Part shown: positions 14,098 to 35,366 of the stretch, piece after piece
Numbering within the stretch: position 1 is the first letter of the stretch
How the letters are laid out: each line of letters begins with the position of its first letter
From: Gammaproteobacteria bacterium
GTDB lineage: Bacteria; Pseudomonadota; Gammaproteobacteria; Ga0077554; Ga007554
Length of the DNA stretch: 64,000 nt
Direction of reading: 5' to 3'
NCBI GenBank assembly: GCA_023266055.1
Contig: JAHFRW010000001.1
Span: 25,153-89,152, forward strand
Translations under genes and position numbers: made by a program
Notes under the pieces: generated by a model
Seen by the model: the letters and a program-made list of their open reading frames with translations, nothing else
Databases searched by the model: none
What the model was told of the DNA's origin: nothing

Positions 14098-15834
14098 ATG
14101 GGATTGATACTGACAGGGGTGGGTGTATCAAAAGGCATTGCCATTGGCAATGCCTGCCTGCTGAAAGGTGATCAACTTGAAATTAATGAATATGTTTTAC
14201 CTAAACATTTAATCGCTGAAGAAGTCGCCCGGTTTCGCCTGGCGCTGGCTACAGCCAGAAAACAGCTTAAAGACATCCATCGAAAAATTCCTCGCAATAC
14301 GCCGGTTGATATTGCTTCTTTTCTTGACACGCACTTGTTGATGCTGGATGACAGTGCGTTATCTGATGCCCCTGTGAAGTTGATAAAAACCCAGCAATGC
14401 AACGCAGAATGGGCATTGATGCAACAACGTGATATGTTGGTGAGTGTGTTTGATGCCATGGATGATATCTATCTGCGTACCCGCAAGGATGACGTTGATC
14501 ATGTGGTGCATCGTGTTTTACGCATTTTACTGAATCATGCCCCTCATTCTTTTGAAGCTCCTGATAGTCGACTTGCCGGTGGCATTGTGGTGGTAGAAGA
14601 TTTATCTCCTGCCGATTCATTGCTGATGCACCAGCAGGGTGTGGCCGCTTTTGTAACCGAGTCAGGAGGCGTGACTTCACACACTACCATCCTGGCGCGT
14701 AGCCTGGGTGTGTCTGCCGTGGCGGGTGTACGCCATGCGCGACGCGATATTCCACATAACGCCATGTTGATTATTGATGGTCAGCAAGGGTTGGTGCTGG
14801 TTGATCCTGATGAGCACGCATTGCGTTATTTTCGTGCCAGACAGCGTGAAGAAAAACGCTACGCTGTTGCGCTCACCAGACTCAAGGATCAGCCTGCGGT
14901 GACGCGTGATGGTGTGGCTATTGCGCTGCATGCCAATGTTGAATTGCCTGAGGATTTTCATTCATTGAAGCGGGTTGGGGCAGAAGGTGTAGGTTTGTAT
15001 CGTACGGAATTTCTTTTTATGAACCGTACGCATCTTCCTGATGAGGAAGAGCAGTTGCAAGCCTATTTACGCATTGTCCGTGGCATGAAGGGCGCACCTG
15101 TAACAATTCGAACACTCGATCTGGGGGCAGACAAAATGTTGAATGGATATCAGGCGGGCACCCAGAATGCCATCAATCCTGCGTTAGGGTTGCGTGCCGT
15201 GCGTTTATGCCTGAAGGAACCACTGTTATTTCGTCCGCAGTTACGTGCGATTCTACGTGCTTCAGCGTATGGTGCAGTACGGATGATGGTGCCCATGTTG
15301 ACCACGCCTTACGAGTTGACGCAGGTTTTGCAGCTGGTGCGCCAGATACAGGAGGAATTGCGGAGTGAAGGGTGCAAGTATGATGAAAATATGCCAGTGG
15401 GTGGTATGATTGAAGTGCCCGCTGCAGCGTTGATGGCGGATGCGTTTGCGCGTCAACTGGATTTCATGTCTATCGGCACCAATGATCTGATTCAATACAC
15501 GTTGGCGACGGATCGTATTAATGAAGCGGTAAACTATCTTTATAACCCTTTGCACCCTGGTGTGTTGCGGTTGATCAATATGACTATTGGTGCGGGTCGT
15601 AAGGCGGGTAAGCCGGTTGCCATGTGTGGCGAAATGGCGGGTGATGTGCGGTATACCCGGTTGTTATTGGGGATGGGACTGAGCGAGTTCAGTATGCATC
15701 CGGCAATGTTGCTGGAAATCAAAAGTATTGTTCAGGACAGCAGTTTGACCGATTTAGGGAAAATGGCGCGTAAAGTATTGAAATGTTCAGATCCCGATGA
15801 GATTAATGTTCTGGTAGACAGGATGAATGCCTGA
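14098..15834 (+). CDS. ptsI: Phosphoenolpyruvate-protein phosphotransferase (Enzyme I), without an N-terminal GAF domain
   Basis: TSHTTILARSLG (active-site His), GLYRTEFLF and SIGTNDLIQY are present. At 578 aa the length matches sugar-type EI. Confidence 0.92.
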   Translation: MGLILTGVGVSKGIAIGNACLLKGDQLEINEYVLPKHLIAEEVARFRLALATARKQLKDIHRKIPRNTPVDIASFLDTHLLMLDDSALSDAPVKLIKTQQCNAEWALMQQRDMLVSVFDAMDDIYLRTRKDDVDHVVHRVLRILLNHAPHSFEAPDSRLAGGIVVVEDLSPADSLLMHQQGVAAFVTESGGVTSHTTILARSLGVSAVAGVRHARRDIPHNAMLIIDGQQGLVLVDPDEHALRYFRARQREEKRYAVALTRLKDQPAVTRDGVAIALHANVELPEDFHSLKRVGAEGVGLYRTEFLFMNRTHLPDEEEQLQAYLRIVRGMKGAPVTIRTLDLGADKMLNGYQAGTQNAINPALGLRAVRLCLKEPLLFRPQLRAILRASAYGAVRMMVPMLTTPYELTQVLQLVRQIQEELRSEGCKYDENMPVGGMIEVPAAALMADAFARQLDFMSIGTNDLIQYTLATDRINEAVNYLYNPLHPGVLRLINMTIGAGRKAGKPVAMCGEMAGDVRYTRLLLGMGLSEFSMHPAMLLEIKSIVQDSSLTDLGKMARKVLKCSDPDEINVLVDRMNA

Positions 15835-15920: not shown

Positions 15921-17288
15921 ATGACTGAATCCTCCCCACAAGAAACACGTCAAGGACGTATCAAGACCCTGACCACTGCGCTGGCGACAGCGCTGGAAAG
16001 TGGGGCGTTGATTAACGTCCGTAAAATGCTCAATAGTTTACACCCGGCGGAAATCGCACGGCTTCTGGAGTCCCTGCCAGCACGTGAGCGGCGTTTGGCA
16101 TGGGAGCTGATTGAGGCTGACCTGGAAGGCGATGTGCTGTCCTATGCCGGTGACGAGGTACGCATACTGCTGATGCGGGAAATGGATGCGCAGGAGCTGG
16201 TCGCGGCCACGGAAGGACTGGATACAGATGACCTGGTGGATATTTTACAGGATTTACCTGATGTAGTTATCCATACCGTGTTGCATTCCATGGACGAGCA
16301 GGATCGCTACCGTGTGGTGTCGGCGTTGTCTTACCCCGAAGATACTGCCGGTGGGTTAATGAACACGGATACCATTACGGTACGTCCTGATGTGACACTG
16401 GATGTGGTGTTGCGCTACTTGCGTCAACGTGGCGAAATTCCCGAAACCACTGACAGCCTGATTGTGGTGACGCGCGCGGATCAATACATTGGCTTGTTAT
16501 CGTTGGCGGATCTATTGACGCGTAATCCTGCACTGACGGTTGCTGAAGTCATGATACGTGATGTGGCAGGTATTCCTGCCAGCCTGCCTGTCAATGAGGT
16601 AGCGCACCTGTTTGAACAGCATGATTTGATCTCTGCACCTGTAGTCGATGTTGATGGCAGTCTGTTGGGCCGTATTACCATTGACGATGTGGTTGATGTG
16701 ATTCGCGATGAAGCGGAGCATTCTGTGATGAGTATGGCGGGACTGCACGAAGAAGATATTTTTGCACCGGTTGTCGCCAGTGCGCGCCGTCGTGGAGTAT
16801 GGTTGGGCATTAACCTGGCCACGGCATTTCTGGCGTCATGGGTGATTGGTCTGTTTGAGGCAACTCTCCAGCAAATCGTTGCGCTTGCTGTACTCATGCC
16901 GATTGTTGCCAGCATGGGCGGCATTGCCGGTAGTCAAACCATTACGCTTGTCATCCGAGGTATGGCATTGGGACGGGTTGGCGTCGCGAATGCACGGCGA
17001 TTGATTATGAAAGAACTTGCAGTGGGTGCCTTGAACGGGCTGTTATGGGCCATTGTCGTGGCGTTAGTGGCGGGCCTGTGGTTTCAGGATGCCAGGATCG
17101 GCGCCATCATTGGTGCTGCCATGATTATTAATCTGGTAGTAGCAGCGTCAGCGGGAGCCATGTTGCCATTAATAATTCGCAGAATGGGCGTAGATCCTGC
17201 TTTGGCTGGTACAGTCATTTTAACCACTATCACCGATGTCGTCGGCTTTATGGCATTTTTGGGTCTGGCAACGATATTTTTGCTGTAA
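15921..17288 (+). CDS. mgtE: Magnesium transporter MgtE
   Basis: An MgtE N-domain, tandem CBS domains and a C-terminal TM domain (GGIAGSQTITLVIRGMALG) are present. Confidence 0.95.
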   Translation: MTESSPQETRQGRIKTLTTALATALESGALINVRKMLNSLHPAEIARLLESLPARERRLAWELIEADLEGDVLSYAGDEVRILLMREMDAQELVAATEGLDTDDLVDILQDLPDVVIHTVLHSMDEQDRYRVVSALSYPEDTAGGLMNTDTITVRPDVTLDVVLRYLRQRGEIPETTDSLIVVTRADQYIGLLSLADLLTRNPALTVAEVMIRDVAGIPASLPVNEVAHLFEQHDLISAPVVDVDGSLLGRITIDDVVDVIRDEAEHSVMSMAGLHEEDIFAPVVASARRRGVWLGINLATAFLASWVIGLFEATLQQIVALAVLMPIVASMGGIAGSQTITLVIRGMALGRVGVANARRLIMKELAVGALNGLLWAIVVALVAGLWFQDARIGAIIGAAMIINLVVAASAGAMLPLIIRRMGVDPALAGTVILTTITDVVGFMAFLGLATIFLL

Positions 17289-22352: not shown

Positions 22353-22474
22353 AAATCAATATTCCTCATGGTAATCGCCTCATTATACGGATTCTGCATT
22401 GGCTGTGGCAAAGTTTGTGGTGCATGTACAGGAGAAATTATACGCACCGTAATGGATCGTCAGAGGGTGAGATA

Positions 22475-22490
22475 TCACCAGAAAGGTGCA
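22475..22490 (+). promoter_or_regulatory. Candidate NtrC-type enhancer site upstream of the nasT sigma-54 promoter
   Basis: TCACC-AGAAA-GGTGCA resembles the NtrC consensus TGCACC-N5-GGTGCA. It lies about 100 nt upstream of the -24/-12 element. Confidence 0.35.
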
Positions 22491-22579
22491 CGATGTTGTG
22501 TGTAACAAAGAAAGCTTTCCGTCATGAAAATAGTTTTAAATGATTGAATAATATTGTTAAATATAACATATTTCGAAGG

Positions 22580-22595
22580 TGGCATATTATTTGCT
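22580..22595 (+). promoter_or_regulatory. Sigma-54 (-24/-12) promoter upstream of nasT
   Basis: TGGCAT-attat-TTGCT matches the consensus TGGCAC-N5-TTGCW. It is intergenic, correctly oriented and 58 nt upstream of ATG 22653. Confidence 0.7.
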
Positions 22596-22652: not shown

Positions 22653-23231
22653 ATGAAGCTGCGTATTATGTTAGTTGATGCCGACCTGCAACGCATGGAT
22701 TTGCTGATGAACACCTTACAGGACACAGGACATTGGGTGATAGCGTGCAATGATGAGGCTGGAAGCCTTTGTAAACATGTACGCGATATTCAACCTGACG
22801 TCATTATTATCAATACGGACTCGCCTATCCGCGATACTTTGGAACATCTGTGTGTGATTGATCGAGATGAGCCACGTCCGGTAGTGATGTTTACACATGA
22901 TAATGACAAACAAAAAATGCGAGCGGCAATACGGGCCGGTGTCAGCGCCTACGTTGTAGATGGAATGACCGGTTCGCGTGTCCAGTCAATTATTGATATT
23001 GCAATGGCGAGATTCGAAGAACATCGCACTCTTAAAAACGAACTGGAGAAAGCGACAGCCACGCTTGCGGAACGCAAAAAAATAGAGCGTGCCAAAGGAT
23101 TTGTAATGAAGCAGCGTGATTGCAGTGAAGATGAGGCCTATCGTTTAATGCGCAAGATGGCAATGAATGGTAACAAAAAACTGTCTGATATTGCAGACAA
23201 TATAAATATTGCCGCCGATATTTTTGTTTGA
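22653..23231 (+). CDS. nasT: ANTAR-domain response regulator NasT (nitrate-responsive antiterminator)
   Basis: The REC-like N-domain (PDVIIINTDSPIRDTLEHLCVIDRDEPRPVVMFT) is very similar to Azotobacter/Pseudomonas NasT as I recall it. The C-terminal ANTAR domain reads ERKKIERAKGFVMKQRDCSEDEAYRLMRKMAMN. Confidence 0.9.
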   Translation: MKLRIMLVDADLQRMDLLMNTLQDTGHWVIACNDEAGSLCKHVRDIQPDVIIINTDSPIRDTLEHLCVIDRDEPRPVVMFTHDNDKQKMRAAIRAGVSAYVVDGMTGSRVQSIIDIAMARFEEHRTLKNELEKATATLAERKKIERAKGFVMKQRDCSEDEAYRLMRKMAMNGNKKLSDIADNINIAADIFV

Positions 23232-23272
23232 GTTTCTGAATAAATCAAACAAGTGTCAGTGATTTTTAAATT

Positions 23273-23354
23273 AGGTAAGCCAACGGCGGTTTACCTGTGG
23301 ACAAAGGCGTCCATTTGCATGAGATACATTCTCGTTCAAGTGGACGCCTTTTTT
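23273..23354 (+). promoter_or_regulatory. ANTAR-target leader 1: dual hexaloop hairpins overlapping an intrinsic terminator
   Basis: Hairpin 1 is AGGTAAGCC[AACGGC]GGTTTACCT (23273-23296). Hairpin 2 is TGGAC[AAAGGC]GTCCA (23298-23313). Both hexaloops have A1 and G4 as in the ANTAR consensus. The terminator GGCGTCCA (23306-23313) / TGGACGCC (23341-23348) plus T6 shares its 5' arm with hairpin 2. Confidence 0.8.
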
Positions 23355-23365
23355 ATTGAAAAAGG

Positions 23366-24319
23366 ATGCCCATGGGCACAATAAGTTATCTAAGTATTAT
23401 TGAACGCTATCATGAATATCGTGGAGCAATACAGGAATTGCTGGCATCGATGATTATTGGTATTGCCGATGAACGGCTGTTAAATGATGCAGAATCTCAA
23501 GGTAAATCAATCCAGTGTCTGGCACAGTACTATCCTTTTGTTGATCTTTTGTATGTTTTGGACGCCCATGGTATTCAAGGCAGTGACAATATAAATACGC
23601 ATGGAAAAATCATGGCGGCCAGTGAGGGTAGGGGAAGGGATCGTAGTCAGCGACCTTATTATCTTCTGGCGCGTGATAGCGAATCCGTGGTGGTAACAGA
23701 GCCCTATTTGTCCAGTGCGAGCAGAAATTTGTGTATATCCACAGCAATAAAGTTACTGGATGAGAAACAGCAGGTCAAAGGCTATGTGGTGCTTGATATT
23801 GATCTGGGAGAGACTATTGAATTTCTTATGGGCGATATTGGAAGACGTCGTTTTCAGCCGTATTTCAAGATGGTTTATATCCTTATTATGATGGGATTGT
23901 TTTCCGTGGTTGCAGCGTTGCTGCATTCTGCATTTACTGAAGTGGTGTCACTTCTTTATGTGGAGCACAATACACATGAATTGCAATTGAAACCTTTTAG
24001 CGTGATTGTTTTTCTGACATTGGCATTAGCGGTATTTGATCTTGGTAAGACCACGTTGGAAGAAGAAGTATTGATGCACAAGGATATTTTTCGCCACAGT
24101 TCGACACGCCGTACCATCACGAGATTTATGGCGGCAATTCTTATTGCGGTATCAATAGAATCTTTGTTGTTGATGTTTAAATCCGCGCTGGGTGATGGCC
24201 ATGATCTTGTTCAGGTTGTATGGATGATGTTGGCGGCAGTGGGTTTGCTGGTGGGTTTGGGATTGTATGTTTTTCTTGGAGCGAAGGCAGAGGCGGTGTT
24301 GTTGAAATTACGTAAGTGA
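23366..24319 (+). CDS. Orphan membrane protein: N-terminal Cache/PDC-like sensor fold (no preceding TM or signal peptide) plus about 4 C-terminal TM helices and no output domain
   Basis: DRSQRPYYLLARDSESVVVTEPYLSSASRNLCISTAIKLLDEKQQVKGYVVLDIDL fits the Cache/PDC pattern. Hydrophobic segments are FKMVYILIMMGLFSVVAALL, FSVIVFLTLALAVFDLG, FMAAILIAVSIESLLLMF and VVWMMLAAVGLLVGLGLYVFLG. The start may be ATG 23372. Confidence 0.75.
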   Translation: MPMGTISYLSIIERYHEYRGAIQELLASMIIGIADERLLNDAESQGKSIQCLAQYYPFVDLLYVLDAHGIQGSDNINTHGKIMAASEGRGRDRSQRPYYLLARDSESVVVTEPYLSSASRNLCISTAIKLLDEKQQVKGYVVLDIDLGETIEFLMGDIGRRRFQPYFKMVYILIMMGLFSVVAALLHSAFTEVVSLLYVEHNTHELQLKPFSVIVFLTLALAVFDLGKTTLEEEVLMHKDIFRHSSTRRTITRFMAAILIAVSIESLLLMFKSALGDGHDLVQVVWMMLAAVGLLVGLGLYVFLGAKAEAVLLKLRK

Positions 24320-24432
24320 ATATTTTGTCAATGATTAATTTTATTTTTTAGGGTGCGGATTTTTTAAAATATTTTTTGCGCAGTTAATGGAATTATAGAT
24401 ACCTATCATAGGGATTTATTTTAGTTGATCAC

Positions 24433-24514
24433 GTAAACCAACGGCGGTTTATTCCTGGACAAAGGCGTCCATTTGCAAGGGATAGATTCCTGATGCGGAT
24501 GGGCGCTTTTTTTT
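24433..24514 (+). promoter_or_regulatory. ANTAR-target leader 2 (paralogue of leader 1) upstream of nrtA
   Basis: Hairpin 1 is GTAAACC[AACGGC]GGTTTAT and hairpin 2 is TGGAC[AAAGGC]GTCCA. The terminator is GCGTCCAT (24465-24472) / ATGGGCGC (24499-24506) plus T8. The core CCAACGGCGGTTTA..TGGACAAAGGCGTCCATTTGCA is shared with leader 1. Confidence 0.8.
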
Positions 24515-24536
24515 ATAAAAATTAAGCGTGGAGTGA

Positions 24537-25853
24537 ATGATTATGAGTGATGACAAGAAAGAAAAAGAGATTGATGTCAATGTTGTTGTCTCAAAGGTGA
24601 CCAATGATGTTTCCCGCCGTAGTTTTATAAAAACGACCGGGTTGGCGTTAGGCGGGTTGGCAATGATGGGAATGATTCCTCCCGGAATTCGTAGCGCAGC
24701 TTGGGCGGCAGGGTCGGATGCGCCTGAAAAAACATCACTCAAGATTGGATTCATACCGCTTACGGATTGTGCCAGCGTGGTAATGGCGGGTGAATTGGGA
24801 TTGTTCAAGAAATATGGTTTGGATGTGACTGTGACAAAAGAAGCAAGCTGGGCGGGAGTGCGTGACAAGCTGGTTAACGGTGAGCTGGATGCCGCGCATG
24901 TTTTATATGGCTTGATGTATGGCGTGCAAATGGGGATTGGTGGTCCCAAGAAAGACATGGCGGTATTAATGTCCATTAACAATAATGGACAGGGTATTAC
25001 TATATCAAATCAATTAAGATCCAAGGGCGTGGTCGATGGCGCATCATTAAAGAAATTGATTGATAAAATTGATGGTGAAAAACGCGAGTATACGTTTGCT
25101 CAGACATTTCCGACAGGAACACACGCGATGTGGCTTTATTACTGGTTGTCTGCATATGGTATTAATCCGTTTACAGACGTTAAAAACATTACTGTTCCAC
25201 CGCCACAAATGGTTGCAAACATGCGGGTTGGAAATATGGATGGTTATTGCGTGGGAGAACCCTGGAATGCACGTGCTATTTACGACAAAGTAGGTTTTTC
25301 TGCGGCAACGACGCAGGATATATGGAAGGATCATCCTGAAAAAGTATTAGGAACTACACTGGAATTTACGCAAAAATATCCTAATACCACGCGGGCCATG
25401 CTGATGGCTGTTCTGGAGGCGTCTAAATATATTGATACGATTTCAAATCGTCCGGCTGTAGCCAAGGTAATTTCAAGAAAGTCATATGTTAATGCGCCGG
25501 AAGATGTTATCGAGGGACGGTTCCTTGGAGATTATGACAATGGTCTGGGAAGAAAATGGAAAGACCCGGATTACATGAAATTCTACAACGACGGAACGGT
25601 TAACTTTCCATATCTCTCAGACGGAATGTGGTTTTTGACTCAACATAAACGCTGGAAATTATTGAAAGATGATCCTGATTATCTTGCGGTTGCAAAAAAA
25701 GTGAATCAAATAGATATATACAAGGAAGCCGCATCGCAGGTGAAAGTTCCTGTGCCAAAAGATGTAATGCGTTCTAGCAAGCTCATTGACGGTGTTGTTT
25801 GGGATGGATCTGATCCAAAAAAATATGCCAACAGTTTCAAGATAAAAGTGTAG
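24537..25853 (+). CDS. nrtA: Nitrate ABC transporter substrate-binding protein (Tat signal)
   Basis: The twin-arginine signal SRRSFIKTTGLALGGLAMMG is followed by the NrtA/CmpA-like LKIGFIPLTDCASVVMA. Confidence 0.92.
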   Translation: MIMSDDKKEKEIDVNVVVSKVTNDVSRRSFIKTTGLALGGLAMMGMIPPGIRSAAWAAGSDAPEKTSLKIGFIPLTDCASVVMAGELGLFKKYGLDVTVTKEASWAGVRDKLVNGELDAAHVLYGLMYGVQMGIGGPKKDMAVLMSINNNGQGITISNQLRSKGVVDGASLKKLIDKIDGEKREYTFAQTFPTGTHAMWLYYWLSAYGINPFTDVKNITVPPPQMVANMRVGNMDGYCVGEPWNARAIYDKVGFSAATTQDIWKDHPEKVLGTTLEFTQKYPNTTRAMLMAVLEASKYIDTISNRPAVAKVISRKSYVNAPEDVIEGRFLGDYDNGLGRKWKDPDYMKFYNDGTVNFPYLSDGMWFLTQHKRWKLLKDDPDYLAVAKKVNQIDIYKEAASQVKVPVPKDVMRSSKLIDGVVWDGSDPKKYANSFKIKV

Positions 25854-25863
25854 GAGGTGTCGC

Positions 25864-26778
25864 GTGGCTGTTATCAGTATTAATCGAAAAATAAAAGAGG
25901 ATGTTGTTCCATCAATAGCCGGGGTTGAAAAGAGCGTGATAAATATTCCGGTGGGTGATAAGCAACCCGACAAAACGTCTGCAAGGCGTAAAGTGATGTT
26001 CTTTTCAAAATCACTACTAGATACTTTTTTTAAAAAAATATTGCCCCCCTTGTTGGGTCTGACATTATTTGTTGTGGGATGGGCTTTTCTGGCACAAAAG
26101 AGTGAAAATTTACCAGGGCCAGATAAAACATGGTATTCGGCAGTGGAATTATTCAGTGATCCGTTTTATGACAATGGGCCTAATGATAAGGGAGTGGGCT
26201 GGAATATTCTGAATTCACTGGAGCGTGTTGGTATTGGCTTTGGTATGGCGGCACTGATTGGTATTCCTCTGGGATTCATGATTGGGCGATTCGCATTTTT
26301 CAATGGCATGGTATCGCCTGTTATCAGCTTGCTGCGTCCGGTTTCTCCATTGGCGTGGTTGCCTATTGGCTTGCTGGTATTCAAGGAAGCCCAGCCTGCC
26401 GCTATCTGGGTGATTTTTGTATCCAGTATCTGGCCCATGGTTATAAACACTGCCGTAGGGGTTGCCCGGATTCCTCAGGATTACATGAATGTTGCGCGTG
26501 TTTTGAATCTTTCAGAATGGAAAATATTTACAAGGATTTTATTTCCCGCTGTGATGCCATACATGATGACGGGTGTCAGGTTGTCAATCGGTGTCGCCTG
26601 GTTGGTAATTGTTGCTGCGGAAATGCTTACTGGTGGTGTCGGTATAGGATTCTGGGTTTGGGATGAATGGAATAATCTCAATGTGGAGCACATTATTATT
26701 GCCATATTTATTATAGGTATTGTCGGGTTGATTCTTGAGAAATTTCTGATGTTGATTGCGAAACGATTTGAATATTGA
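25864..26778 (+). CDS. nrtB: Nitrate ABC transporter permease
   Basis: GTG start with an AGGAGG Shine-Dalgarno. The protein is a polytopic BPD-type permease (ISLLRPVSPLAWLPIGLLVF). Confidence 0.92.
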   Translation: MAVISINRKIKEDVVPSIAGVEKSVINIPVGDKQPDKTSARRKVMFFSKSLLDTFFKKILPPLLGLTLFVVGWAFLAQKSENLPGPDKTWYSAVELFSDPFYDNGPNDKGVGWNILNSLERVGIGFGMAALIGIPLGFMIGRFAFFNGMVSPVISLLRPVSPLAWLPIGLLVFKEAQPAAIWVIFVSSIWPMVINTAVGVARIPQDYMNVARVLNLSEWKIFTRILFPAVMPYMMTGVRLSIGVAWLVIVAAEMLTGGVGIGFWVWDEWNNLNVEHIIIAIFIIGIVGLILEKFLMLIAKRFEY

Positions 26779-26805
26779 TTGCCTGATTATTGCTGGAGAA
26801 AAATC

Positions 26806-27597
26806 ATGAATAAATATGTACAAGTAGAAGGTGTGAAGGTGGTATTTGAAACAAAGAGTGGGGACTTTGTGGCTATCCAGGATATTGATTTATCCATTCA
26901 ACAAGGCGAATTCGTTTCAATCATCGGGCATTCAGGCTGCGGTAAATCCACCTTGCTTAATCTGGTGGCAGGCTTGATTGAGCCGGCCGAGGGTGCTTTA
27001 TTCTGCGCTGGAAGAGAGGTGAGTGGTCCAGGGCCGGAGCGAGCAGTGGTTTTTCAGAACCATTCCTTGCTGCCGTGGTTGACCTGCTTCAGCAATGTAT
27101 ATTTGGCTGTAGAGCGTGTTTTCAGTAAAAATGAAGATAAGGCCAGTTTAAAAAAACGTACATATGATGCTCTTGATTTGGTCGGTTTAAGTCATGCAGC
27201 GCAAAAGTTTCCTCATGAAATATCGGGTGGAATGAAGCAGCGCGTAGGGATCGCCCGCGCACTGTCAATGCAGCCCAAGGTGTTGTTGCTGGACGAACCC
27301 TTCGGTGCACTGGATGCTCTGACACGGGCCAATTTGCAGGATGAGTTGTTGCGTATTGTCGCGGCTTCCGGCACAACTTCAATTATGGTGACACATGATG
27401 TAGATGAGGCGGTACTGTTGTCGGACCGCATTGTGATGATGACTAATGGGCCTGGGGCAACCATTGGGGAGATTTTGCATGTCAATCTGCCGCGGCCCCG
27501 TAATCGTTTGGCATTGGTGGAAAATTCTGAGTATATGCATTTGCGTGGTGATGTTCTTAAATTCCTTTATGAACGTCATGCTAAAAAAGCGGCATAA
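26806..27597 (+). CDS. nrtD: Nitrate ABC transporter ATP-binding protein
   Basis: Walker A GHSGCGKST, signature ISGGMKQR and Walker B LLLDEPFGALD are present. Confidence 0.92.
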   Translation: MNKYVQVEGVKVVFETKSGDFVAIQDIDLSIQQGEFVSIIGHSGCGKSTLLNLVAGLIEPAEGALFCAGREVSGPGPERAVVFQNHSLLPWLTCFSNVYLAVERVFSKNEDKASLKKRTYDALDLVGLSHAAQKFPHEISGGMKQRVGIARALSMQPKVLLLDEPFGALDALTRANLQDELLRIVAASGTTSIMVTHDVDEAVLLSDRIVMMTNGPGATIGEILHVNLPRPRNRLALVENSEYMHLRGDVLKFLYERHAKKAA

Positions 27598-27636
27598 AGC
27601 CTTATATTAATTAACTGAATATTGATGGGGAATGAA

Positions 27637-28923
27637 ATGAAGACGTTGTTTTTTAAAAGAAATATTGTGAGTTCTGTTTATGCTGGTGTCGGTGTTGCAT
27701 CACTGATGTTTTTTCCAGTATCCGCGATGTATGCAGCGGATACGGTTGTCGAAGCATTGGGAGGGGGTAAGGTGTCAGGCCAGTTCCGTTATCGCTACGA
27801 ATGGGTGGATGACCAGACCAAAAATAAAAATGCTGATGCGTCGACCATGCGTACCCGCCTTGGTTATATGACGGGTGATTATCTGGACATTTCAGGTTTT
27901 GTGCAATTTGAGGATGTTCATGTTGTAGGCGGGAGTGAGATTTATAATAGCACTGTTAATGGTCGTACTGAATATCCTGTGGTTGCCGATCCGGAAGGAA
28001 GTGAGATCAACCAGGCATTTTTGATGTATAAGGGCGTACCTGATACGGTATTTAAATATGGACGTCAGGCCATTAATCTGGATAACCAGCGTTTTATAGG
28101 TACGGTGGAATGGCGGCAAAATGCCCAGACATATGATGCGTTTACGATAACCAATACTTCCTTGCAGGATACTACGATTTTTTATGGGCATGTGAGTGGT
28201 GTAAATCGAATTTTTGGGCCAAAGAGTGCACAGGGTGATCTGGATATGGCTGGTGACTTGCTGAATATTACGTATAAGGGATGGTCAGCCGGTAATCTGA
28301 CGGGTTATGGATATTTTCTGGATTATATGCCGGGACAATCTATTTCCAATGCCTTGTCGAATCAAACGGCAGGATTACGTTTTGATGGTGGTTATAAACC
28401 GGAATCAATGAGTTCCCGGTTTTTATATACGGCTGAATTTGCCAGACAGAGTGATTATGCAGATGGTGGCTCACCAATAGATGGTGATTATGCCAATTTG
28501 ATGTTGGGTGTTGATGTGAGCAATGTGCAGGTTAAGCTTAATTATGAAGTGCTGAGTGGTGATGGGATTTATGCATTTGCAACACCCTTCGCGACGTTGC
28601 ATGCTTTTAATGGGTGGGCAGACAGGTTTCTGGTAACCCCCAGGGATGGTCTCAAGGATATTTTCTTGAGTGCCAGCGCGGTTGTGCTGGAGGGCATTAA
28701 TCTTTCCGGGGCATATCATTGGTATTCTTCTGACAACCTGGGGTACGACTATGGTTCCGAGTTGAATCTCCAGGTGGCCAAGAAGATTAATAAATCGCTG
28801 GTGGTGACCGCCAAGTATGCAGCCTACAGTGCTGATGCCAATGCCAGCAATGTTGCGCGCAATGCTGCGGGTGCAGCGAAAGATCTGGATAAATTCTGGG
28901 TAATGCTCGACGTGCAGTTTTAA
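27637..28923 (+). CDS. Outer-membrane beta-barrel porin (alginate-export/AlgE-like family) encoded at the end of the nrt operon
   Basis: It has a signal peptide (SVYAGVGVASLMFFPVSAMYA), alternating beta-strand sequence, aromatic girdle residues and a C-terminal ...WVMLDVQF. Confidence 0.7.
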   Translation: MKTLFFKRNIVSSVYAGVGVASLMFFPVSAMYAADTVVEALGGGKVSGQFRYRYEWVDDQTKNKNADASTMRTRLGYMTGDYLDISGFVQFEDVHVVGGSEIYNSTVNGRTEYPVVADPEGSEINQAFLMYKGVPDTVFKYGRQAINLDNQRFIGTVEWRQNAQTYDAFTITNTSLQDTTIFYGHVSGVNRIFGPKSAQGDLDMAGDLLNITYKGWSAGNLTGYGYFLDYMPGQSISNALSNQTAGLRFDGGYKPESMSSRFLYTAEFARQSDYADGGSPIDGDYANLMLGVDVSNVQVKLNYEVLSGDGIYAFATPFATLHAFNGWADRFLVTPRDGLKDIFLSASAVVLEGINLSGAYHWYSSDNLGYDYGSELNLQVAKKINKSLVVTAKYAAYSADANASNVARNAAGAAKDLDKFWVMLDVQF

Positions 28924-29072
28924 GGTTGTGGGTAGTGCGCTGGAATGGATGCTGGTGCACTGCCCCTTATTTTGCGCCCCAAATAAGGGCAAGCATGGAT
29001 TTGTTTATTCAAGTTGGTGCGGTCTGGATATCGTCAGAGGCTCATCGCAAACCCTCCGCTGTATGATTTATT

Positions 29073-29093
29073 TTGATTAAAATCAATATCTTG
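29073..29093 (+). promoter_or_regulatory. Perfect FNR/CRP-family palindrome overlapping an exact IHF core consensus, upstream of the transporter promoter
   Basis: TTGAT-TAAA-ATCAA (29073-29086) equals the FNR consensus TTGAT-N4-ATCAA. AATCAATATCTTG (29081-29093) equals the IHF core WATCAANNNNTTR. Confidence 0.4.
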
Positions 29094-29111
29094 ATTTGTT
29101 TTTCACGTGTC

Positions 29112-29126
29112 TGGCATGAGGTTTGC
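29112..29126 (+). promoter_or_regulatory. Sigma-54 promoter upstream of the MFS nitrate/nitrite transporter
   Basis: The match is TGGCAT-gaggt-TTGC(T). It is intergenic and correctly oriented. Confidence 0.7.
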
Positions 29127-29211
29127 TTAATCTGTTGCGTCACATGCACTTTTTTCGTCACCCGGCGTTTAAAGTGGCCCACTCGATACACGCTAAAATA
29201 CAGAGGCAAAC

Positions 29212-30486
29212 ATGAATTTTCAGGATTTTAAAAAAGCGGGGCATTGGCCGACGTTACTGGCAGCGTTTTTGTATTTTGATGTCAGCTTTATGGTGTGGGT
29301 GGTGCTGGGGCCACTATCACTGTATCTGACCCAGGATTTGGGGCTGTCCATAGAGGAAAAGTTTGGCATTGTCGCTGTACCTATTCTGGCAGGTGCCTTG
29401 TTGCGTGTGCCGATGGGCATGCTGGCTGATCATATCGGGCCCAAGCGTGCGGGCCAGCTTGGACAAATCATTGTCATGGTTGGACTGAGTTATGCCTGGA
29501 TATTTGGCTTGCATTCCAAGCTTGAGGTGGAGTTGCTGGGTGTCCTGCTGGGGTTTGCCGGTGCAAGCTTTGCGGTTGCCTTGCCGCAGGCCAGCCGCTG
29601 GTATCCGCCACATTATCAGGGTGTTGTGCTGGGTATTGCCGGGGCCGGTAATATGGGCGTGGTGCTCGACTCCATGATTGTGCCCTCGCTGGCTGAAAAT
29701 TATGGCTGGCAGGCGGTGTTTGGCTTTTTATTGATCCCCGTTGTTATCGTGTTTTTACTGTATAGCTGGATGGCTAAGGATGCGCCGATGCAGTCCAAGC
29801 CTGTGACATTGGAGAATTATCGTGCAGTGCTTAAGGATGTGGATGTCTGGTGGTTCATGTTTTTCTATTCGATCACATTTGGTGGTTTTGTAGGCTTGGG
29901 CAGTGCATTACCTTTGTATTTTACCAACTGGTACCATGCCTCGGGTGTGGCGGCAGGCATGATGGTTGCGATCGTTGTGTTTGCAGGTTCCATGTTCCGA
30001 CCGGTAGGTGGATGGATGGCCGATCGTATGGGCGGCATCAGGACATTGCAGATTCTGTTTTTTGTCGTGGCCTTGTCATATCTCGCCATATCCCTGATGC
30101 CGGAAGGGCCGGCGCCGCTTGTTGCAACGGCAGACAAGGTCAGTGGATGGGGGCTGTTTGAGTTACCTGCTGTAGCGTGGGGTGCAGTGCTGATTTTCTT
30201 TATCGGTGCGATGGCATTGGGCATGGGTAATGGTTCGGTATTTCAGCTGGTGCCACAGCGTTTTCGCCATGAAATGGGTGTGGTGACGGGGTTGGTCGGT
30301 GCCGCAGGGGGTGTGGGTGGCTTTGTGCTGGCCAAATCCCTGGGCTGGTCGAAAGGCATGACGGGTGACTTTGCGATGGGTTTTTGGGTATTTGCAGCGC
30401 TTGCCATGCTGGGTCTGGTTGGGTTGATCCGGGTGAAAATGCGCTGGCGCACCACATGGGGTGCAGTGTCCGGGGCAAAAATATAG
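29212..30486 (+). CDS. MFS nitrate/nitrite transporter (NNP family; NarK/NasA type)
   Basis: It is a 12-TM MFS protein with NNP-type motifs (AGALLRVPMGMLADHIGPKR; GAGNMG). Confidence 0.9.
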   Translation: MNFQDFKKAGHWPTLLAAFLYFDVSFMVWVVLGPLSLYLTQDLGLSIEEKFGIVAVPILAGALLRVPMGMLADHIGPKRAGQLGQIIVMVGLSYAWIFGLHSKLEVELLGVLLGFAGASFAVALPQASRWYPPHYQGVVLGIAGAGNMGVVLDSMIVPSLAENYGWQAVFGFLLIPVVIVFLLYSWMAKDAPMQSKPVTLENYRAVLKDVDVWWFMFFYSITFGGFVGLGSALPLYFTNWYHASGVAAGMMVAIVVFAGSMFRPVGGWMADRMGGIRTLQILFFVVALSYLAISLMPEGPAPLVATADKVSGWGLFELPAVAWGAVLIFFIGAMALGMGNGSVFQLVPQRFRHEMGVVTGLVGAAGGVGGFVLAKSLGWSKGMTGDFAMGFWVFAALAMLGLVGLIRVKMRWRTTWGAVSGAKI

Positions 30487-30560
30487 AAGCGGTTTGGCTT
30501 GTATCTTTATAAAGGTCTCTGTACTCTGTTTCGATATTGCAACAACCTTGTTTGTGAAAT

Positions 30561-32258
30561 ATGTCCAACGAACAGCCCCAGACCCGCATCGGTTTTGTCA
30601 GCAGTACCGGAAAACGCGCCGACAATCAGGATTATGTCGGCGCATGTCTGGAGGATAGTCGTCATTCCAGCCTGAAAGGCATGGTGGTTGCCGTGGCCGA
30701 TGGTGTGGGTGGCAACAAGGGTGGACGCCAGGCGGCAGAAACCACGGTGCGGGGTTTCATTGAGGGTTATTTTGGTTTACCCGAAACGCTGGGTGTAGAG
30801 CGGGCGGCGGGTCGGGCATTGGTGGCGATGAACCGCTGGATTCATATGCAAGGGCGGCATGACCCGTTCCTTGCAAATATGTCGACCACCTTCAGTGCAC
30901 TTATCTTTCGTGGTCGCCAGGCTCATGTGGTGCATGTGGGCGATACGCGCATCTACCGTCTGCGTGGCAAGCAGCTCATGCGATTGACCGTGGATCATAC
31001 CCTGTCCAATCCTGATCTCAATCATATATTGTTTCGTGCAATTGGTCTGGAAGAAGGCCTGCGTATTGATTATGTGGTGCATAGTCTGGAGCCGCATGAT
31101 CGTTTTCTGCTATGCAGTGATGGCGTGCATGGCGTGCTCACTGATCGGCGGATTCAACCTTTGCTGGTACAGTACGCCGCCCCTGAGGAATGTGCGCAGG
31201 CCATTGTGCAGGCGGCCTCGGAAGCAGGGAGTCAGGATAATATTACCGCGCTGGTGATGGACGTTATCGGCTTGCCTGCTGCCGATCAGATTGACCTTGA
31301 AACAACGATTGACGCATTGGTTATCCGTGAATTGCCCAGCGAAGGTGATGAGGTTGATGGCTTTAAATTGTTGAGTAAAATTTCGGATGGCCGATACAGC
31401 CGTTTGTTCAAGGCGGAAGATAGCGTGGAAAAACGCATTGTCGCGCTTAAATTCCCGCATCCGCGGGTAGCGAGTGAGGCGGCTTACCGGCGTGCCTTTG
31501 TACGTGAAGCATGGATAGCCGCGCGCGTGCTCAGTCCGTGGATTGTGGGTGTCATTGGCCTGGCGCCAGGCCGTCAAACGCGATTGTATTCAGTGATGCC
31601 CTATTATGAAGGTATTACACTGGAGGAGCGTTTAAAACAGCCTGTAAAATTATCGCTTGAGAAAGGTGTTGATATCGGCATCAAACTCGCCAAAGCCGTG
31701 TATGCGCTTAACAGATTGCGTATTGTTCACCGTGACATCAAGCCCGATAACGTATTGTTACAGGAAGGCGGTGGCCTGAAATTACTGGATCTGGGTGTTG
31801 CGCGGTTGCCTGGATTTCCGGAGTTTGAGGAAGAGGAAATTCCTGGAACACCCAGCTACATGGCACCGGAGCTGTTTGAAGGCGAGCGAGGTGACGATTC
31901 TTCAGATGTATATGCATTGGGTGTCACTTTGTATCGTATCTTCAGTGCCGGTTACTATCCCTATGGTGAAGTCGAGCCTTTCAGCCGCCCACGGTTTAAT
32001 AAGCGCGCATCGCTGACGCACTATCGCTCTGATTTACCTGCATGGCTGGATATACTATTGACGCGAGCCGTCGCTGTTGAAAAATCCAAACGGGTCGGTG
32101 ATGCCATGGAGCTTGCATTTGAGCTGGAGAATGGTTTGGCGCACGGTGTGCGTGCCGTGCCCTCCCAGCTCCCTTTTTACGAGCGTAATCCGGTGTTATT
32201 CTGGCAGATCATTGCGTTGATGCTTGCGTTGGCGTTGCTCACCGTCCTGGTCTTGTAG
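30561..32258 (+). CDS. Bifunctional PP2C-type Ser/Thr phosphatase / Hanks-type Ser/Thr kinase with a C-terminal TM anchor
   Basis: PP2C motifs are VADGVGGNKGG, GDTRIYRL, LCSDGVHG and GSQDNITALVMDV. Kinase motifs are VALKF, VHRDIKPDNVLL, DLG and SYMAPE. The C-terminal helix is VLFWQIIALMLALALLTVLVL. Confidence 0.88.
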   Translation: MSNEQPQTRIGFVSSTGKRADNQDYVGACLEDSRHSSLKGMVVAVADGVGGNKGGRQAAETTVRGFIEGYFGLPETLGVERAAGRALVAMNRWIHMQGRHDPFLANMSTTFSALIFRGRQAHVVHVGDTRIYRLRGKQLMRLTVDHTLSNPDLNHILFRAIGLEEGLRIDYVVHSLEPHDRFLLCSDGVHGVLTDRRIQPLLVQYAAPEECAQAIVQAASEAGSQDNITALVMDVIGLPAADQIDLETTIDALVIRELPSEGDEVDGFKLLSKISDGRYSRLFKAEDSVEKRIVALKFPHPRVASEAAYRRAFVREAWIAARVLSPWIVGVIGLAPGRQTRLYSVMPYYEGITLEERLKQPVKLSLEKGVDIGIKLAKAVYALNRLRIVHRDIKPDNVLLQEGGGLKLLDLGVARLPGFPEFEEEEIPGTPSYMAPELFEGERGDDSSDVYALGVTLYRIFSAGYYPYGEVEPFSRPRFNKRASLTHYRSDLPAWLDILLTRAVAVEKSKRVGDAMELAFELENGLAHGVRAVPSQLPFYERNPVLFWQIIALMLALALLTVLVL

Positions 32259-32327
32259 CCGGTGTGCACTGTGTCGGGGCTGTATACGCGATGTGCGCAC
32301 TATATAATGATGACACATTAGCGTCAT

Positions 32328-32344
32328 TGCACCAAAACAGAGCA
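32328..32344 (+). promoter_or_regulatory. Candidate NtrC-type site upstream of nirB
   Basis: TGCACC-AAAAC-AGAGCA compares with the consensus TGCACC-N5-GGTGCA. It lies about 120 nt upstream of the sigma-54 element. Confidence 0.3.
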
Positions 32345-32449
32345 TCCCTTCCTTTCAGAGCAATTCCCGATATTGTTCCGGCTGTACGGGAGCGGCGTAA
32401 CCTATTATTCTATAAATAATTATTTTGCCATTTTTGCATGTTATATAAT

Positions 32450-32465
32450 TGGCATCCATATTGCA
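32450..32465 (+). promoter_or_regulatory. Sigma-54 promoter upstream of nirB
   Basis: The match is TGGCAT-ccata-TTGCA. It is intergenic and 63 nt upstream of ATG 32528. Confidence 0.7.
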
Positions 32466-32527
32466 GTGTTAATTTTAAATAAAGTGAGCCATGAGGCTCA
32501 ATATGAAGTGTTGATGAGGGTCAGGTC

Positions 32528-34966: not shown

Positions 34967-35018
34967 TACTGCGGTTCACGCAAAGATATTACGTTCATAC
35001 ATTGGAAATTTTTATAAA

Positions 35019-35345
35019 ATGACAGATTGGATTGAAGTGGGTGTGTTGGAGGATATCCCTTGTTTGGGCGCGCGCGTAGTACGTACTGCTGTGGGTGATA
35101 TCGCCGTGTTTCGCACAGCGGGTGATGAGGTGTTTGCCTTGCGTGACGCATGTCCCCACAAAGGCGGGCCGTTGTCACAGGGCATCGTGCATGGCAAGCG
35201 CGTAACATGCCCGTTACATAACTGGGTGCTGGAGTTGGGTGATGGCTCGGCATTGGCCCCTGATGTGGGGTGTACACCCTATTACCCTGTGAAAATTGAA
35301 AATGGTGTGATCAGCCTGTCCTTGCAGCCACAATCTGCACTTTGA
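35019..35345 (+). CDS. nirD: Nitrite reductase small subunit (Rieske-like)
   Basis: CPHKGGPLSQGIVHGKRVTCPLHNW matches NirD, and the gene follows nirB. Confidence 0.92.
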   Translation: MTDWIEVGVLEDIPCLGARVVRTAVGDIAVFRTAGDEVFALRDACPHKGGPLSQGIVHGKRVTCPLHNWVLELGDGSALAPDVGCTPYYPVKIENGVISLSLQPQSAL

Positions 35346-35366
35346 ATCGTGGCCATTGACGCAGGC

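Follow-up and report, generated by a model that had tools for sequence, protein, structure and literature searches.

Among described systems, the closest counterparts in gene arrangement to the locus studied here are NasS-NasT, as known from Paracoccus denitrificans, Azotobacter and Pseudomonas, and AmiC-AmiR, in which the gene for a cytoplasmic sensor lies beside that for an antiterminator having receiver (REC) and ANTAR domains, and in which a two-hairpin leader overlaps a terminator. NasS and AmiC are soluble proteins of the periplasmic-binding-protein fold, with NasS being NrtA-like. We here analyzed a 64-kb stretch of DNA from a gammaproteobacterium (contig JAHFRW010000001.1; the whole stretch is called the window below, and positions are counted within it), where nasT is followed by a gene for a different kind of protein, combining a PDC/Cache fold with four transmembrane (TM) segments and here called Cache-4TM. 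The gene is moreover absent from most NasT loci and is found alongside a NasS-like gene in one locus (L072). We found that the Cache-4TM gene, in the clade to which the window belongs, accompanies the nitrate-assimilation cluster persistently, though as a facultative accessory, and that its product is a Cache sensor with an inverted topology, as predicted, and a novel membrane output. With regards to function we tentatively favor, as the best available explanation and short of an even chance, that Cache-4TM is an accessory cytoplasmic metabolite sensor acting at the membrane on oxyanion uptake, giving feedback on NrtABC and/or NarK, and not an equivalent of NasS.

With regards to the protein itself, the same architecture of an N-terminal Cache/PDC domain followed by four TM segments, within about 300 residues, is found in PglG (WlaM), encoded in the N-glycosylation locus of Campylobacter. 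A representative of C. ureolyticus type (P0168) matched the Cache-4TM protein with a phmmer E-value of 6.7e-23 at 27% identity, and its gene lies directly after pglB-pglA-pglC-pglD-pglE-pglF, i.e. in the pglG position. PglG differs, however, in belonging to a distant subfamily that has neither the RPYY pocket motif nor the RHSSTRRT loop described below, and in its genomic context. To our knowledge this only named member of the family has remained without an assigned function for about two decades; other named relatives carry only the labels ‘PDC sensor domain-containing protein’ or ‘general glycosylation pathway protein’. We found no paper in the literature tying the family to nitrate assimilation, and the papers on PglG give no known function, so that what is known of the family so far amounts to an annotation label and the orphan pglG. 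Among solved proteins, the best matches in both sequence and structure were the dCache_1AA sensors (PctA, Mlp37, Mlp24, Tlp3 and CtaA), having the R-P-aromatic, P-Y and D pocket positions in common with Cache-4TM at identical spacing. The domains of those sensors comprise two PDC modules, located extracytoplasmically between two TM helices and feeding methyl-accepting chemotaxis protein (MCP), kinase or GGDEF outputs, whereas Cache-4TM has one module, predicted to be cytoplasmic, no N-terminal TM helix and a 4-TM output, and differs at two of the five motif positions. Membrane proteins of PDC-like fold having no enzymatic output are also represented by YycH and YycI of the WalK system, which we take to act through TM contacts with a partner, but in these the domain is extracellular and there is only one TM helix, and their likeness to Cache-4TM is that of the generic fold only (WalK-YycH was found at rank 21 of the Foldseek list). 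At the level of RNA, finally, the dual hexaloop hairpin with a terminator, as in the Rfam narK RNA (RF03032) and ANTAR-target leaders, is common to both leaders of the window, although these precede the Cache-4TM gene and nrtA instead of narK.

The window holds a complete nitrate-assimilation cluster in the order nasT, leader 1, Cache-4TM, leader 2, nrtABC, porin, narK, kinase, nirB and nasA. Linkage was analyzed in the 80 genomic loci having the closest relatives of the Cache-4TM gene, with flanks of varying length, counting a locus as nas-linked when nas or nrt genes were found inside its available flank. By this measure 27 of the 80 loci were nas-linked, as were 13 of the 30 loci having at least 5 kb on both flanks. 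In a neighbor-joining tree the nas-linked Cache-4TM genes formed essentially one clade, with 26 of its 29 members being nas-linked, comprising Gallionellales, Nitrotoga, Sulfuriferula, metagenome-assembled genomes of Burkholderiales type and the window itself (beta-proteobacterial type). The clades of gamma-proteobacterial sulfur oxidizers (Chromatiales, Ectothiorhodospiraceae, Thiodiazotropha and Thiotrichales), having homologues of about 60% identity, were unlinked except for one locus of Ectothiorhodospiraceae (L042; globin-CacheTM-nrtABC-like), which makes an independent nas-linked case. An association of the family with nas and nrt loci, on which the initial annotation of this DNA had made its proposal depend, was thus found in the clade of the window but, L042 apart, not among the gamma-proteobacterial sulfur oxidizers.

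Within the nas-linked loci the gene occupies several different places. The closest relatives (L001-L004, 86-88% identical) have a divergent moaB followed by CacheTM-nasT-leader-nrtABC-porin, where Cache-4TM and nasT make up a pre-attenuator pair, like nasS-nasT. Thirteen loci instead read nasT-leader-nrtABC-porin-CacheTM, with the gene standing last behind the attenuator and far from nasT, three loci (L033, L036 and L037) read nirB-nirD-CacheTM-narK-kinase, with L022 similar and thereby CacheTM, NarK and kinase contiguous in all four, and two (L044 and L057) read nasA-cobA-nirB-nirD-CacheTM-cbiX-nasT, with L040 similar. In L072, a signal-less NasS-like gene, a globin gene and the CacheTM gene lie in a row. 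In about 20 loci the gene directly next to Cache-4TM encodes a porin, NarK or NrtA, i.e. a part of a transport system, and in about eight it is nasT; the gene adjoins nasT in the window and eight other loci, and stands apart from it in about 18 nas-linked loci. Since the linkage survives at least five rearrangements, it speaks for Cache-4TM being functionally connected with nitrate assimilation within the clade. It also bears on the alternative that Cache-4TM takes part in a general membrane homeostasis unrelated to nitrate, its nas position being inherited synteny and the duplication of the leader being incidental. Outside the clade, most homologues show no linkage to nas genes, as that explanation would have it, and one of the closest loci seen from NasT (L081, see below) lacks the gene; yet a linkage outliving so many rearrangements argues for selection on the linkage itself, the L042 case is independent, and the gene in the window has gained a NasT-dependent gate of its own. 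We regard this alternative as quite improbable.

The initial annotation had held that Cache-4TM occupies the position where a NasS partner of NasT is expected. There is indeed no nasS in the window, as it had also stated, with tblastn finding no second NrtA-like gene within the 64 kb, and the sole NrtA homologue (24537-25853) is the binding protein of the transporter, carrying a twin-arginine (Tat) signal (SRRSFIK). The expectation as such failed when seen against 80 independent metagenome loci centered on NasT relatives, 46-84% identical to NasT of the window. The usual layout in these was nasT, leader (in 64 of the 80), nrtA with a signal peptide, nrtB and nrtC, followed by porin, nirB or nasA. 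A signal-less NrtA-like, i.e. NasS-like, gene was seen in only five (L090, L099, L112, L125 and L160), and a Cache-4TM gene in two (L082 and L092), being absent from the remaining 78. In this clade of NasT it is thus usual for nasT to have no nasS beside it, and the place following nasT is not one that belongs to NasS. The locus having the NasT closest to that of the window (L081, with NasT 84%, MoaB 87% and kinase 90% identical) reads nasT-cynS-leader-nrtA and has no Cache-4TM gene at the locus, while L082 (NasT 83%) reads nasT-cynS-DUF1348-like-CacheTM (85%), followed by a sigma-54-like site and leader-nrtA; neither has a leader ahead of the Cache-4TM position. As these two loci differ in this way, the nasT-to-nrtA interval can be seen as a variable cargo slot and Cache-4TM as a facultative, movable accessory. 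NasS-like and Cache-4TM genes are furthermore not mutually exclusive, since L072 carries both, and the Cache-4TM protein is not NasS-like, giving no NMT1 match and having a PDC fold instead of the NrtA/NMT1-type periplasmic-binding-protein fold. Co-occurrence at the level of loci accordingly gave no support for Cache-4TM as a replacement for NasS. The cynS-like genes after nasT (L081:10635-11108; L082:2942-3953, the latter with the DUF1348-like gene) were assigned by reading of their translations. Two tandem nasT paralogues, about 30-46% identical, were seen ahead of the leader in four loci (L010:4178-5474, L011:4129-5387, L092 and L102).

The same data bear on an explanation where Cache-4TM would be a membrane-bound anti-antiterminator, holding NasT inactive and releasing it when its Cache domain binds nitrate, nitrite or another inducer, and thereby replacing or complementing NasS. 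The Cache-4TM gene lies beside nasT in the window and in L001-L004, L040, L044 and L057, with no NasS-like gene at those nasT-adjacent loci, and the predicted cytoplasmic sensor domain would share its compartment with NasT. The canonical acceptor position of NasT is moreover Asn54 in the window and D, N, G, K or A among orthologues, which suggests a pseudo-receiver that is controlled otherwise than by phosphorylation, and this lack of conservation hints at a protein partner exerting the control, as AmiC does on AmiR and NasS on NasT (PMC3795266). Most NasT loci, however, have neither NasS nor Cache-4TM nearby, with 64 of the 80 having nasT followed directly by the leader; NasT of L081, without the gene, and of L082, with it, are almost equally near to NasT of the window; L072 has the NasS-like gene in addition to CacheTM; and in 13 loci the gene is placed behind the attenuator at a distance from nasT. 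The cytoplasmic loop of Cache-4TM is also invariant where NasT is only 36-61% identical, which would be odd for a co-evolving pair, the 4-TM part is conserved far beyond the needs of an anchor and occurs without the sensor, and nas linkage is lacking for the gamma-proteobacterial homologues of about 60% identity. Taking both sides together, we consider sequestration of NasT by Cache-4TM unlikely.

The two leaders of the window were recognized as a 62-nt direct repeat (23270-23331 and 24428-24489) of 84% identity, with 1158 nt from start to start. Both contain the hexaloops AACGGC and AAAGGC, with A as the first and G as the fourth loop nucleotide. The second of the two adjacent hairpins shares sequence with the 5' side of a long terminator stem in both leaders, and the minimum free energy fold has a terminator and U-tract in place of this hairpin (-45.9 kcal/mol and z -8.4 for leader 1; -37.6 kcal/mol and z -5.5 for leader 2). 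A covariance model (R1), built from both of these leaders together with nine leaders of related loci, scored them at 90.6 and 81.9 bits, respectively, and located a leader directly after nasT in 64 of the 80 independent NasT-centered loci. When 61 aligned leader matches were analyzed for covariation, 12 of 13 base pairs showed compensatory double changes and 91% of the cells were paired, compared to 20-55% with slid partners, and none of 500 shuffles reached the observed score. From their folds, covariation and placement beside nasT, both leaders are thus real ANTAR-type antiterminator/terminator switches. The narK RNA model of Rfam matched them only in part, at 30.2 and 26.6 bits with a gathering score of 43.2, covering model positions 31-70 of 72.

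These were the only two leader copies found in the 64-kb window, and neither a hairpin scan nor R1 found a leader directly upstream of Cache-4TM in any other genome among 160 loci, all leaders in these preceding nrtA or an nrtA-like gene. Bracketing by two leaders is particular to the window, and the duplication of the leader is lineage-specific. Leader 1 is 87% and leader 2 82% identical to the single leader of L081 and L082, and they are 76% identical to each other. That the Cache-4TM gene is individually bracketed by ANTAR attenuators about 1160 nt apart, as first noticed in the initial annotation, was confirmed by the spacing and covariation of the two leaders, and its suggestion that the gene was inserted together with a duplicated leader agrees with the single leader and the variable nasT-nrtA interval of L081 and L082. 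With regards to transcription, sigma-54-type promoter-like sites (TGGCAT-N5-TTGCW) lie 60-100 nt upstream of nasT (22580-22595), narK (29112-29127) and nirB (32450-32465), and the site at 22580 is the probable origin, judged from its sequence, of the transcript that meets both attenuators. If such sites are real, a transcript from the nasT promoter must by inference pass two serial NasT gates in order to reach nrtABC. There was no sigma-54-like match between nasT and nrtA in the window; a promoter of this type between the Cache-4TM gene and leader 2 was considered and found not to be present there. At the equivalent place in L082 (5150-5180), after the Cache-4TM gene and ahead of the leader of nrtA, a good sigma-54-like site (TGGCAT-GTTGA-TTGCT) is present, and since the window has none there, the two lineages may wire nrtABC transcription differently. 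A CACCA-N4-GGTGCA dyad, by eye resembling an NtrC site, was also seen at 22474-22491, about 90 nt upstream of the sigma-54-like site of nasT.

The Cache-4TM open reading frame (ORF) of 317 residues corresponds to an identical database protein of 315 residues (P0001), the length that results from a start at a second ATG (23372), located 6 nt behind an AAGGA Shine-Dalgarno sequence. Because of this database copy and the better spacing, 23372 is probably the true start. Using 19-residue Kyte-Doolittle windows, no window within the first 160 residues was found above 1.09 and there was no N-terminal hydrophobic segment. A hidden first TM helix is excluded as well, since the ORF offers no room for extension upstream. 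Beyond the sensor region there are four hydrophobic segments, at approximately residues 168-190, 208-227, 251-272 and 284-306. Orientation was derived from counts of lysine plus arginine in the flanking segments, which were three before TM1, none in loop 1, five in loop 2, none in loop 3 and four in the tail, from which both termini are predicted to be inside (N-in, C-in) and the Cache domain to be cytoplasmic. By that prediction, the Cache domain is here neither located between two TM helices nor extracytoplasmic.

The assignment as a Cache domain was supported at the levels of both sequence and structure. Pfam dCache_1 (PF02743) matched residues 42-154 with an E-value of 1.1e-11, marginally at 45.2 bits against a cut-off of 45, and a weaker Pfam match in the same protein was to MCP-like_PDC_1. 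The dCache_1 match was also found in most close homologues (precomputed), as well as in 21 of 38 diverse family members surveyed for conservation, reaching down to 22% identity (22-56%). As only positions 54-159 of the 240 in the profile were matched, the protein has one PDC module, and the approximately 165 residues ahead of TM1 give space for one such module and not for a tandem double Cache. An AlphaFold2 model built on 32 homologues had a mean predicted local distance difference test (pLDDT) score of 79, with 83-92 in the Cache region, and a secondary structure of helix-helix-strands followed by long helices at 164-198, 203-240, 244-275 and 281-316. Foldseek against the PDB returned only PDC/Cache sensor domains for this model, with E-values of 3e-7 to 4e-4, the matches being KinD (with pyruvate), Tlp3, DctB, PctA/C, Mlp24/37, CtaA and CqsR; those to KinD, Tlp3, DctB and PctA were at 3e-7 to 1e-4 with a probability of 1.00. 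Scans with Pfam and NCBIfam found no kinase, MCP, GGDEF or other output domain in the protein, NCBIfam giving no match at all. The analyses of hydropathy, charge, model and domains hence agreed with what had been presumed from the letters of the DNA, i.e. a Cache/PDC fold in the N-terminal ~165 residues, in a cytoplasmic sensor lacking signal peptide and N-terminal TM helix, with four TM helices and no known output domain. 

When the family profile was searched against the PDB sequences, only amino-acid-binding dCache receptors were matched (E-values 1.6e-5 to 9e-3), namely Mlp37, Mlp24, PctA, CtaA and a proline-binding diguanylate cyclase. The AA_motif of such receptors, consisting of Y121, R126, W128, Y144 and D173 in PctA numbering, has residues contacting the carboxylate and amine groups of the ligand (PMC8915833). 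In the alignment R96-P97-Y98 of Cache-4TM falls on R126-P-W128, Y114 on Y144 and D144 on D173, with spacing identical to the AA_motif, including 18 residues from R to Y, and R96, Y114 and D144 are invariant within the subfamily. At the other two of the five positions, Y121 is replaced by K/R91 and W128 by Y98, by which the pocket is to be seen as related to a canonical amino-acid site but not as being one. A carboxylate-plus-amine ligand is a reasonable guess from these residues, which gave no specific pointer to nitrate or nitrite and no likeness to a known nitrate site. Related Cache domains, with RPWF and LSSAT motifs, were also seen in three MCP signaling proteins (P0249, P0255 and P0263), and since they are C-terminal in these, a related Cache subtype is used in the cytoplasm elsewhere.

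The 4-TM part is the most conserved region of the protein. At E-values of at most 1e-3, 1364 clusters matched Cache-4TM, with the best 120 all being at least 60% identical over the full length; 138 representatives matched at 1e-10 or better (50%-identity cluster level), and a pattern scan found relatives encoded in 461 species-level genomes. Across the 38 diverse members, which share the full-length Cache plus 4-TM homology, D225, L226, F254, A261, I264, E265 and L267 were invariant and K228, E232, E234 and K272 nearly so, within the family motifs FDLxK...EEEV and ALSIE. In close homologues FDLGKTxLEEEVLxxKDIxRHSSTRRTIxRF-AAILIAVSIE is essentially invariant, covering the end of TM2, the cytoplasmic hairpin and TM3, and the cytoplasmic helical hairpin LEEEVLMHKDIFRHSSTRRTITRF is unchanged throughout the subfamily. 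Constraint on Cache-4TM appears stronger than on most of the locus, as identities to relatives are 85-88% for this protein but 61% and 83% for NasT, 69-77% for MoeA and 54-74% for MobA. Stand-alone 4-TM proteins of 150-175 residues with the same motifs also exist, and this, together with the conservation, shows the module to be more than an anchor. The protein described in the initial annotation as a membrane-anchored sensor is thus a membrane protein, but not one where the TM part serves solely for anchoring. Searches with the isolated C-terminus, stand-alone homologues and the 38 diverse members found no Pfam or NCBIfam family for the 4-TM module, only scattered chance matches, and a TM-only AlphaFold2 model (pLDDT 78) gave no fold match in the PDB, the best Foldseek E-value being 1.5. 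PsiE, brought up by one faint Pfam match and by the phosphate-transporter-like neighborhood of a Nitrotoga paralogue, was rejected as a homologue at an hhalign probability of 0.5% against E. coli PsiE.

Such an autonomous module could be an oligomeric conduit for ions or solutes (nitrite, protons or cations) that is gated by the Cache domain, thereby having a role like that of NirC or NasH in nas clusters. Apart from its occurrence on its own, the conserved charged residues in or at the membrane (D225, K228, E265 and K272) and the helices of the model, reaching well past the bilayer as in some channel families, would fit with a conduit. No gene of NirC or NasH type was found among the scanned genes of the nas cluster (22653-38051), and in L033, L036, L037, L040, L044 and L057 the Cache-4TM gene follows nirBD, resembling the place of nirC in the nirBDC-cysG operon of E. 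coli. This positional analogy is weak, however, no Pfam transporter family and no significant channel or transporter fold was matched (Orai and PomA came at E-values of 3-6, behind the best at 1.5), and invariant acidic residues would be unexpected in an anion pathway. In our view it is improbable that Cache-4TM is a conduit of this kind.

The conserved hairpin may instead be a docking surface, by which Cache-4TM would be a substrate or adaptor of a conserved signaling protein, either with the PP2C/Ser-Thr kinase acting on the RHSSTRRT loop or with PII docking there. Its invariant, basic and Ser/Thr-rich cytoplasmic turn KDIFRHSSTRRTITRF has low pLDDT at residues 241-244, a fully (100%) conserved surface implies a very conserved partner, and the kinase gene, present also in the window, is contiguous with CacheTM and NarK in L022, L033, L036 and L037. 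Against this, the loop motif is limited to the proteobacterial subfamily and absent in distant members, many nas-linked loci (of the L001-L004 and L010 type) have no kinase within 10 kb, and the proposal is pure inference. We hold it to be very unlikely.

The explanation that we tentatively favor, feedback on oxyanion uptake, would work as follows. Transcripts starting at the sigma-54-like site before nasT would stop at leader 1 unless NasT is active, and upon read-through Cache-4TM would be transcribed, followed by a second NasT gate before nrtABC. Synthesis of the Cache-4TM protein would then be confined to conditions of nitrogen limitation in which NasT is active, as follows from the gating of nasT-promoter transcripts by leader 1. 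The ligand of the Cache pocket may be a small metabolite of the cytoplasm with carboxylate and amine groups, indicative of nitrogen status. From the pocket, the signal would pass along the juxtamembrane helix into the 4-TM module with its invariant hairpin on the cytoplasmic side, and this module would throttle post-translationally an inner-membrane step of oxyanion uptake, at NrtABC and/or NarK. Parallels to such a role would be the regulatory domain at the C-terminus of NrtC in cyanobacteria and the way in which PII controls nitrate uptake. We favor this explanation because the neighbors of the gene are mostly transport components and NrtC of the window, with 272 residues and an ATP-binding cassette (ABC) domain only, has no extra regulatory domain, and because a paralogue lies beside an apparent oxyanion ABC system and the pocket is of a kind fitting amino acids or nitrogen status. 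The paralogue is a second Cache-4TM gene of Nitrotoga (L005, 7712-15279, and L069), flanked on one side by genes resembling those of an aquaporin and of arsC, and on the other by a porin gene with a pstSCAB-like ABC operon, where the four-gene operon, as for oxyanion uptake, and the other neighbors were read from translations only.

Several findings weigh against this uptake-feedback explanation. About 50 of the 80 closest homologues, in gamma-proteobacterial sulfur oxidizers, are found among housekeeping genes such as lysS, prfC, rlmI and lolCDE-like genes, the PglG protein of Campylobacter sits in a glycosylation locus, and L081, closest with regards to NasT, does without the gene at its locus. 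The pocket mismatches with two of the five AA_motif positions, and in distant family members the RPY motif is gone. The sigma-54-like matches number seven in the window, three of them being those before nasT, narK and nirB, compared to 4.8 expected, which is not significant. The three stand-alone 4-TM genes that were looked up were monocistronic and in unrelated contexts, with no conserved neighbor and no transporter nearby, and a stand-alone module fits an intrinsic activity, e.g. conductance, at least equally well. In a wider formulation, the family would be an unrecognized inner-membrane signal device, in which a cytoplasmic Cache domain reads an intracellular metabolite that reflects nitrogen status or derives from oxyanions, and a 4-TM effector directly controls either NasT or the uptake of nitrate and nitrite; we consider this doubtful as well, but should it be true, many chemolithoautotrophs having no NasS would gain the missing post-transcriptional or post-translational control of nitrate assimilation.

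Cache domains are the commonest extracellular sensors of bacteria, and one that faces the cytoplasm and drives a 4-TM module with no Pfam family or solved fold would represent a new type of output for this class of sensors. The family is also large, with its 461 species genomes and more than 1300 metagenome sequence clusters, and the nas linkage that keeps rearranging in iron-, sulfur- and nitrite-oxidizing beta-proteobacterial lineages gives a first functional handle on it. That linkage points to an extra layer of control in nitrate uptake or assimilation where NasT has no adjacent NasS, and the order nasT-leader-gene-leader-nrtABC makes a compact natural case of two antitermination checkpoints in series.

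Table 1. Features of the window at and around the Cache-4TM gene, with positions, strand and basis of assignment
Feature	Positions	Strand	Basis and remarks
rpoN	9187-10770		Window gene
Sigma-54-type promoter-like site before nasT (TGGCAT-N5-TTGCT)	22580-22595	+	Consensus match only
nasT, REC-ANTAR antiterminator	22653-23231	+	192 residues from MKLRIML; Pfam ANTAR 2.2e-19, Response_reg 3.6e-07
ANTAR leader 1	23270-23358	+	P1 23273-23296 (AACGGC), P2 23297-23314 (AAAGGC), terminator 23297-23356 plus U-tract
Cache-4TM gene	23366-24319	+	317-residue ORF; PglG-like family member
Single-module PDC/Cache sensor domain	23489-23827	+	Residues 42-154; Pfam, Foldseek, PDB profile alignment
4-TM module	23858-24316	+	Residues 165-317; alignments, stand-alone homologues
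ANTAR leader 2, upstream of nrtA	24428-24517	+	P1 24433-24452, P2 24456-24471, terminator 24456-24515 plus U-tract
nrtA (Tat signal), nrtB, nrtC; nitrate/nitrite ABC transporter	24537-27597	+	Pfam NMT1_2 1.9e-106, BPD_transp_1, ABC_tran
Outer-membrane porin of nrt operon	27622-28923	+	Pfam Alginate_exp 1.2e-08; syntenic with Cache-4TM in 13 loci
narK (major facilitator superfamily nitrate/nitrite transporter) and PP2C/Ser-Thr kinase	29212-32258	+	Pfam/NCBIfam scans
Fused PP2C phosphatase/Ser-Thr kinase, C-terminal TM anchor	30561-32258	+	One ORF directly after narK
nirB	32528-34966	+	Pfam Pyr_redox_2, NIR_SIR; small gap after nirB presumed nirD
nasA	35349-38051	+	Pfam Molybdopterin, Molydop_binding, Fer2_BFD

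Around the cluster (Table 1), moaB, moeA and mobA, for the molybdenum cofactor, are found upstream of nasT in divergent orientation, and the pair of narK and kinase genes recurs in L022, L033, L036, L037, L057, L067, L081 and L117. Further upstream, the segment 9187-17288 contains rpoN-hprK-rapZ, a gene of phosphoenolpyruvate-utilizing enzyme I type (14098-15834) and mgtE (15921-17288), resembling a nitrogen phosphotransferase system and having no evident tie to Cache-4TM. In six loci of Chromatiales and Ectothiorhodospiraceae (L035, L048, L049, L050, L058 and L063), the Cache-4TM gene follows that of a protein of about 256 residues with a metallo-beta-lactamase fold (di-iron-like), in some of them with an ORF of about 110 residues in between and, where the flank allows, with rlmI and a divergent LysR/OxyR-like regulator downstream. 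A large membrane GGDEF-EAL protein (ORF of 840-1030 residues) is encoded after the CacheTM or NasT gene in L044, L057, L061 and L072; in Pseudomonas putida, inhibition of NasT upon binding of cyclic di-GMP has been reported (PMC10783516). A globin of about 137 residues, finally, is encoded directly upstream of Cache-4TM (L042 9528-9944; L072 5683-6096) or beside nasT, and also in L084, L086, L114 and L155; this resembles the case of Bradyrhizobium, where a hemoglobin is described as co-expressed with the nitrate-assimilation system for detoxification of nitric oxide (PMC4724949).

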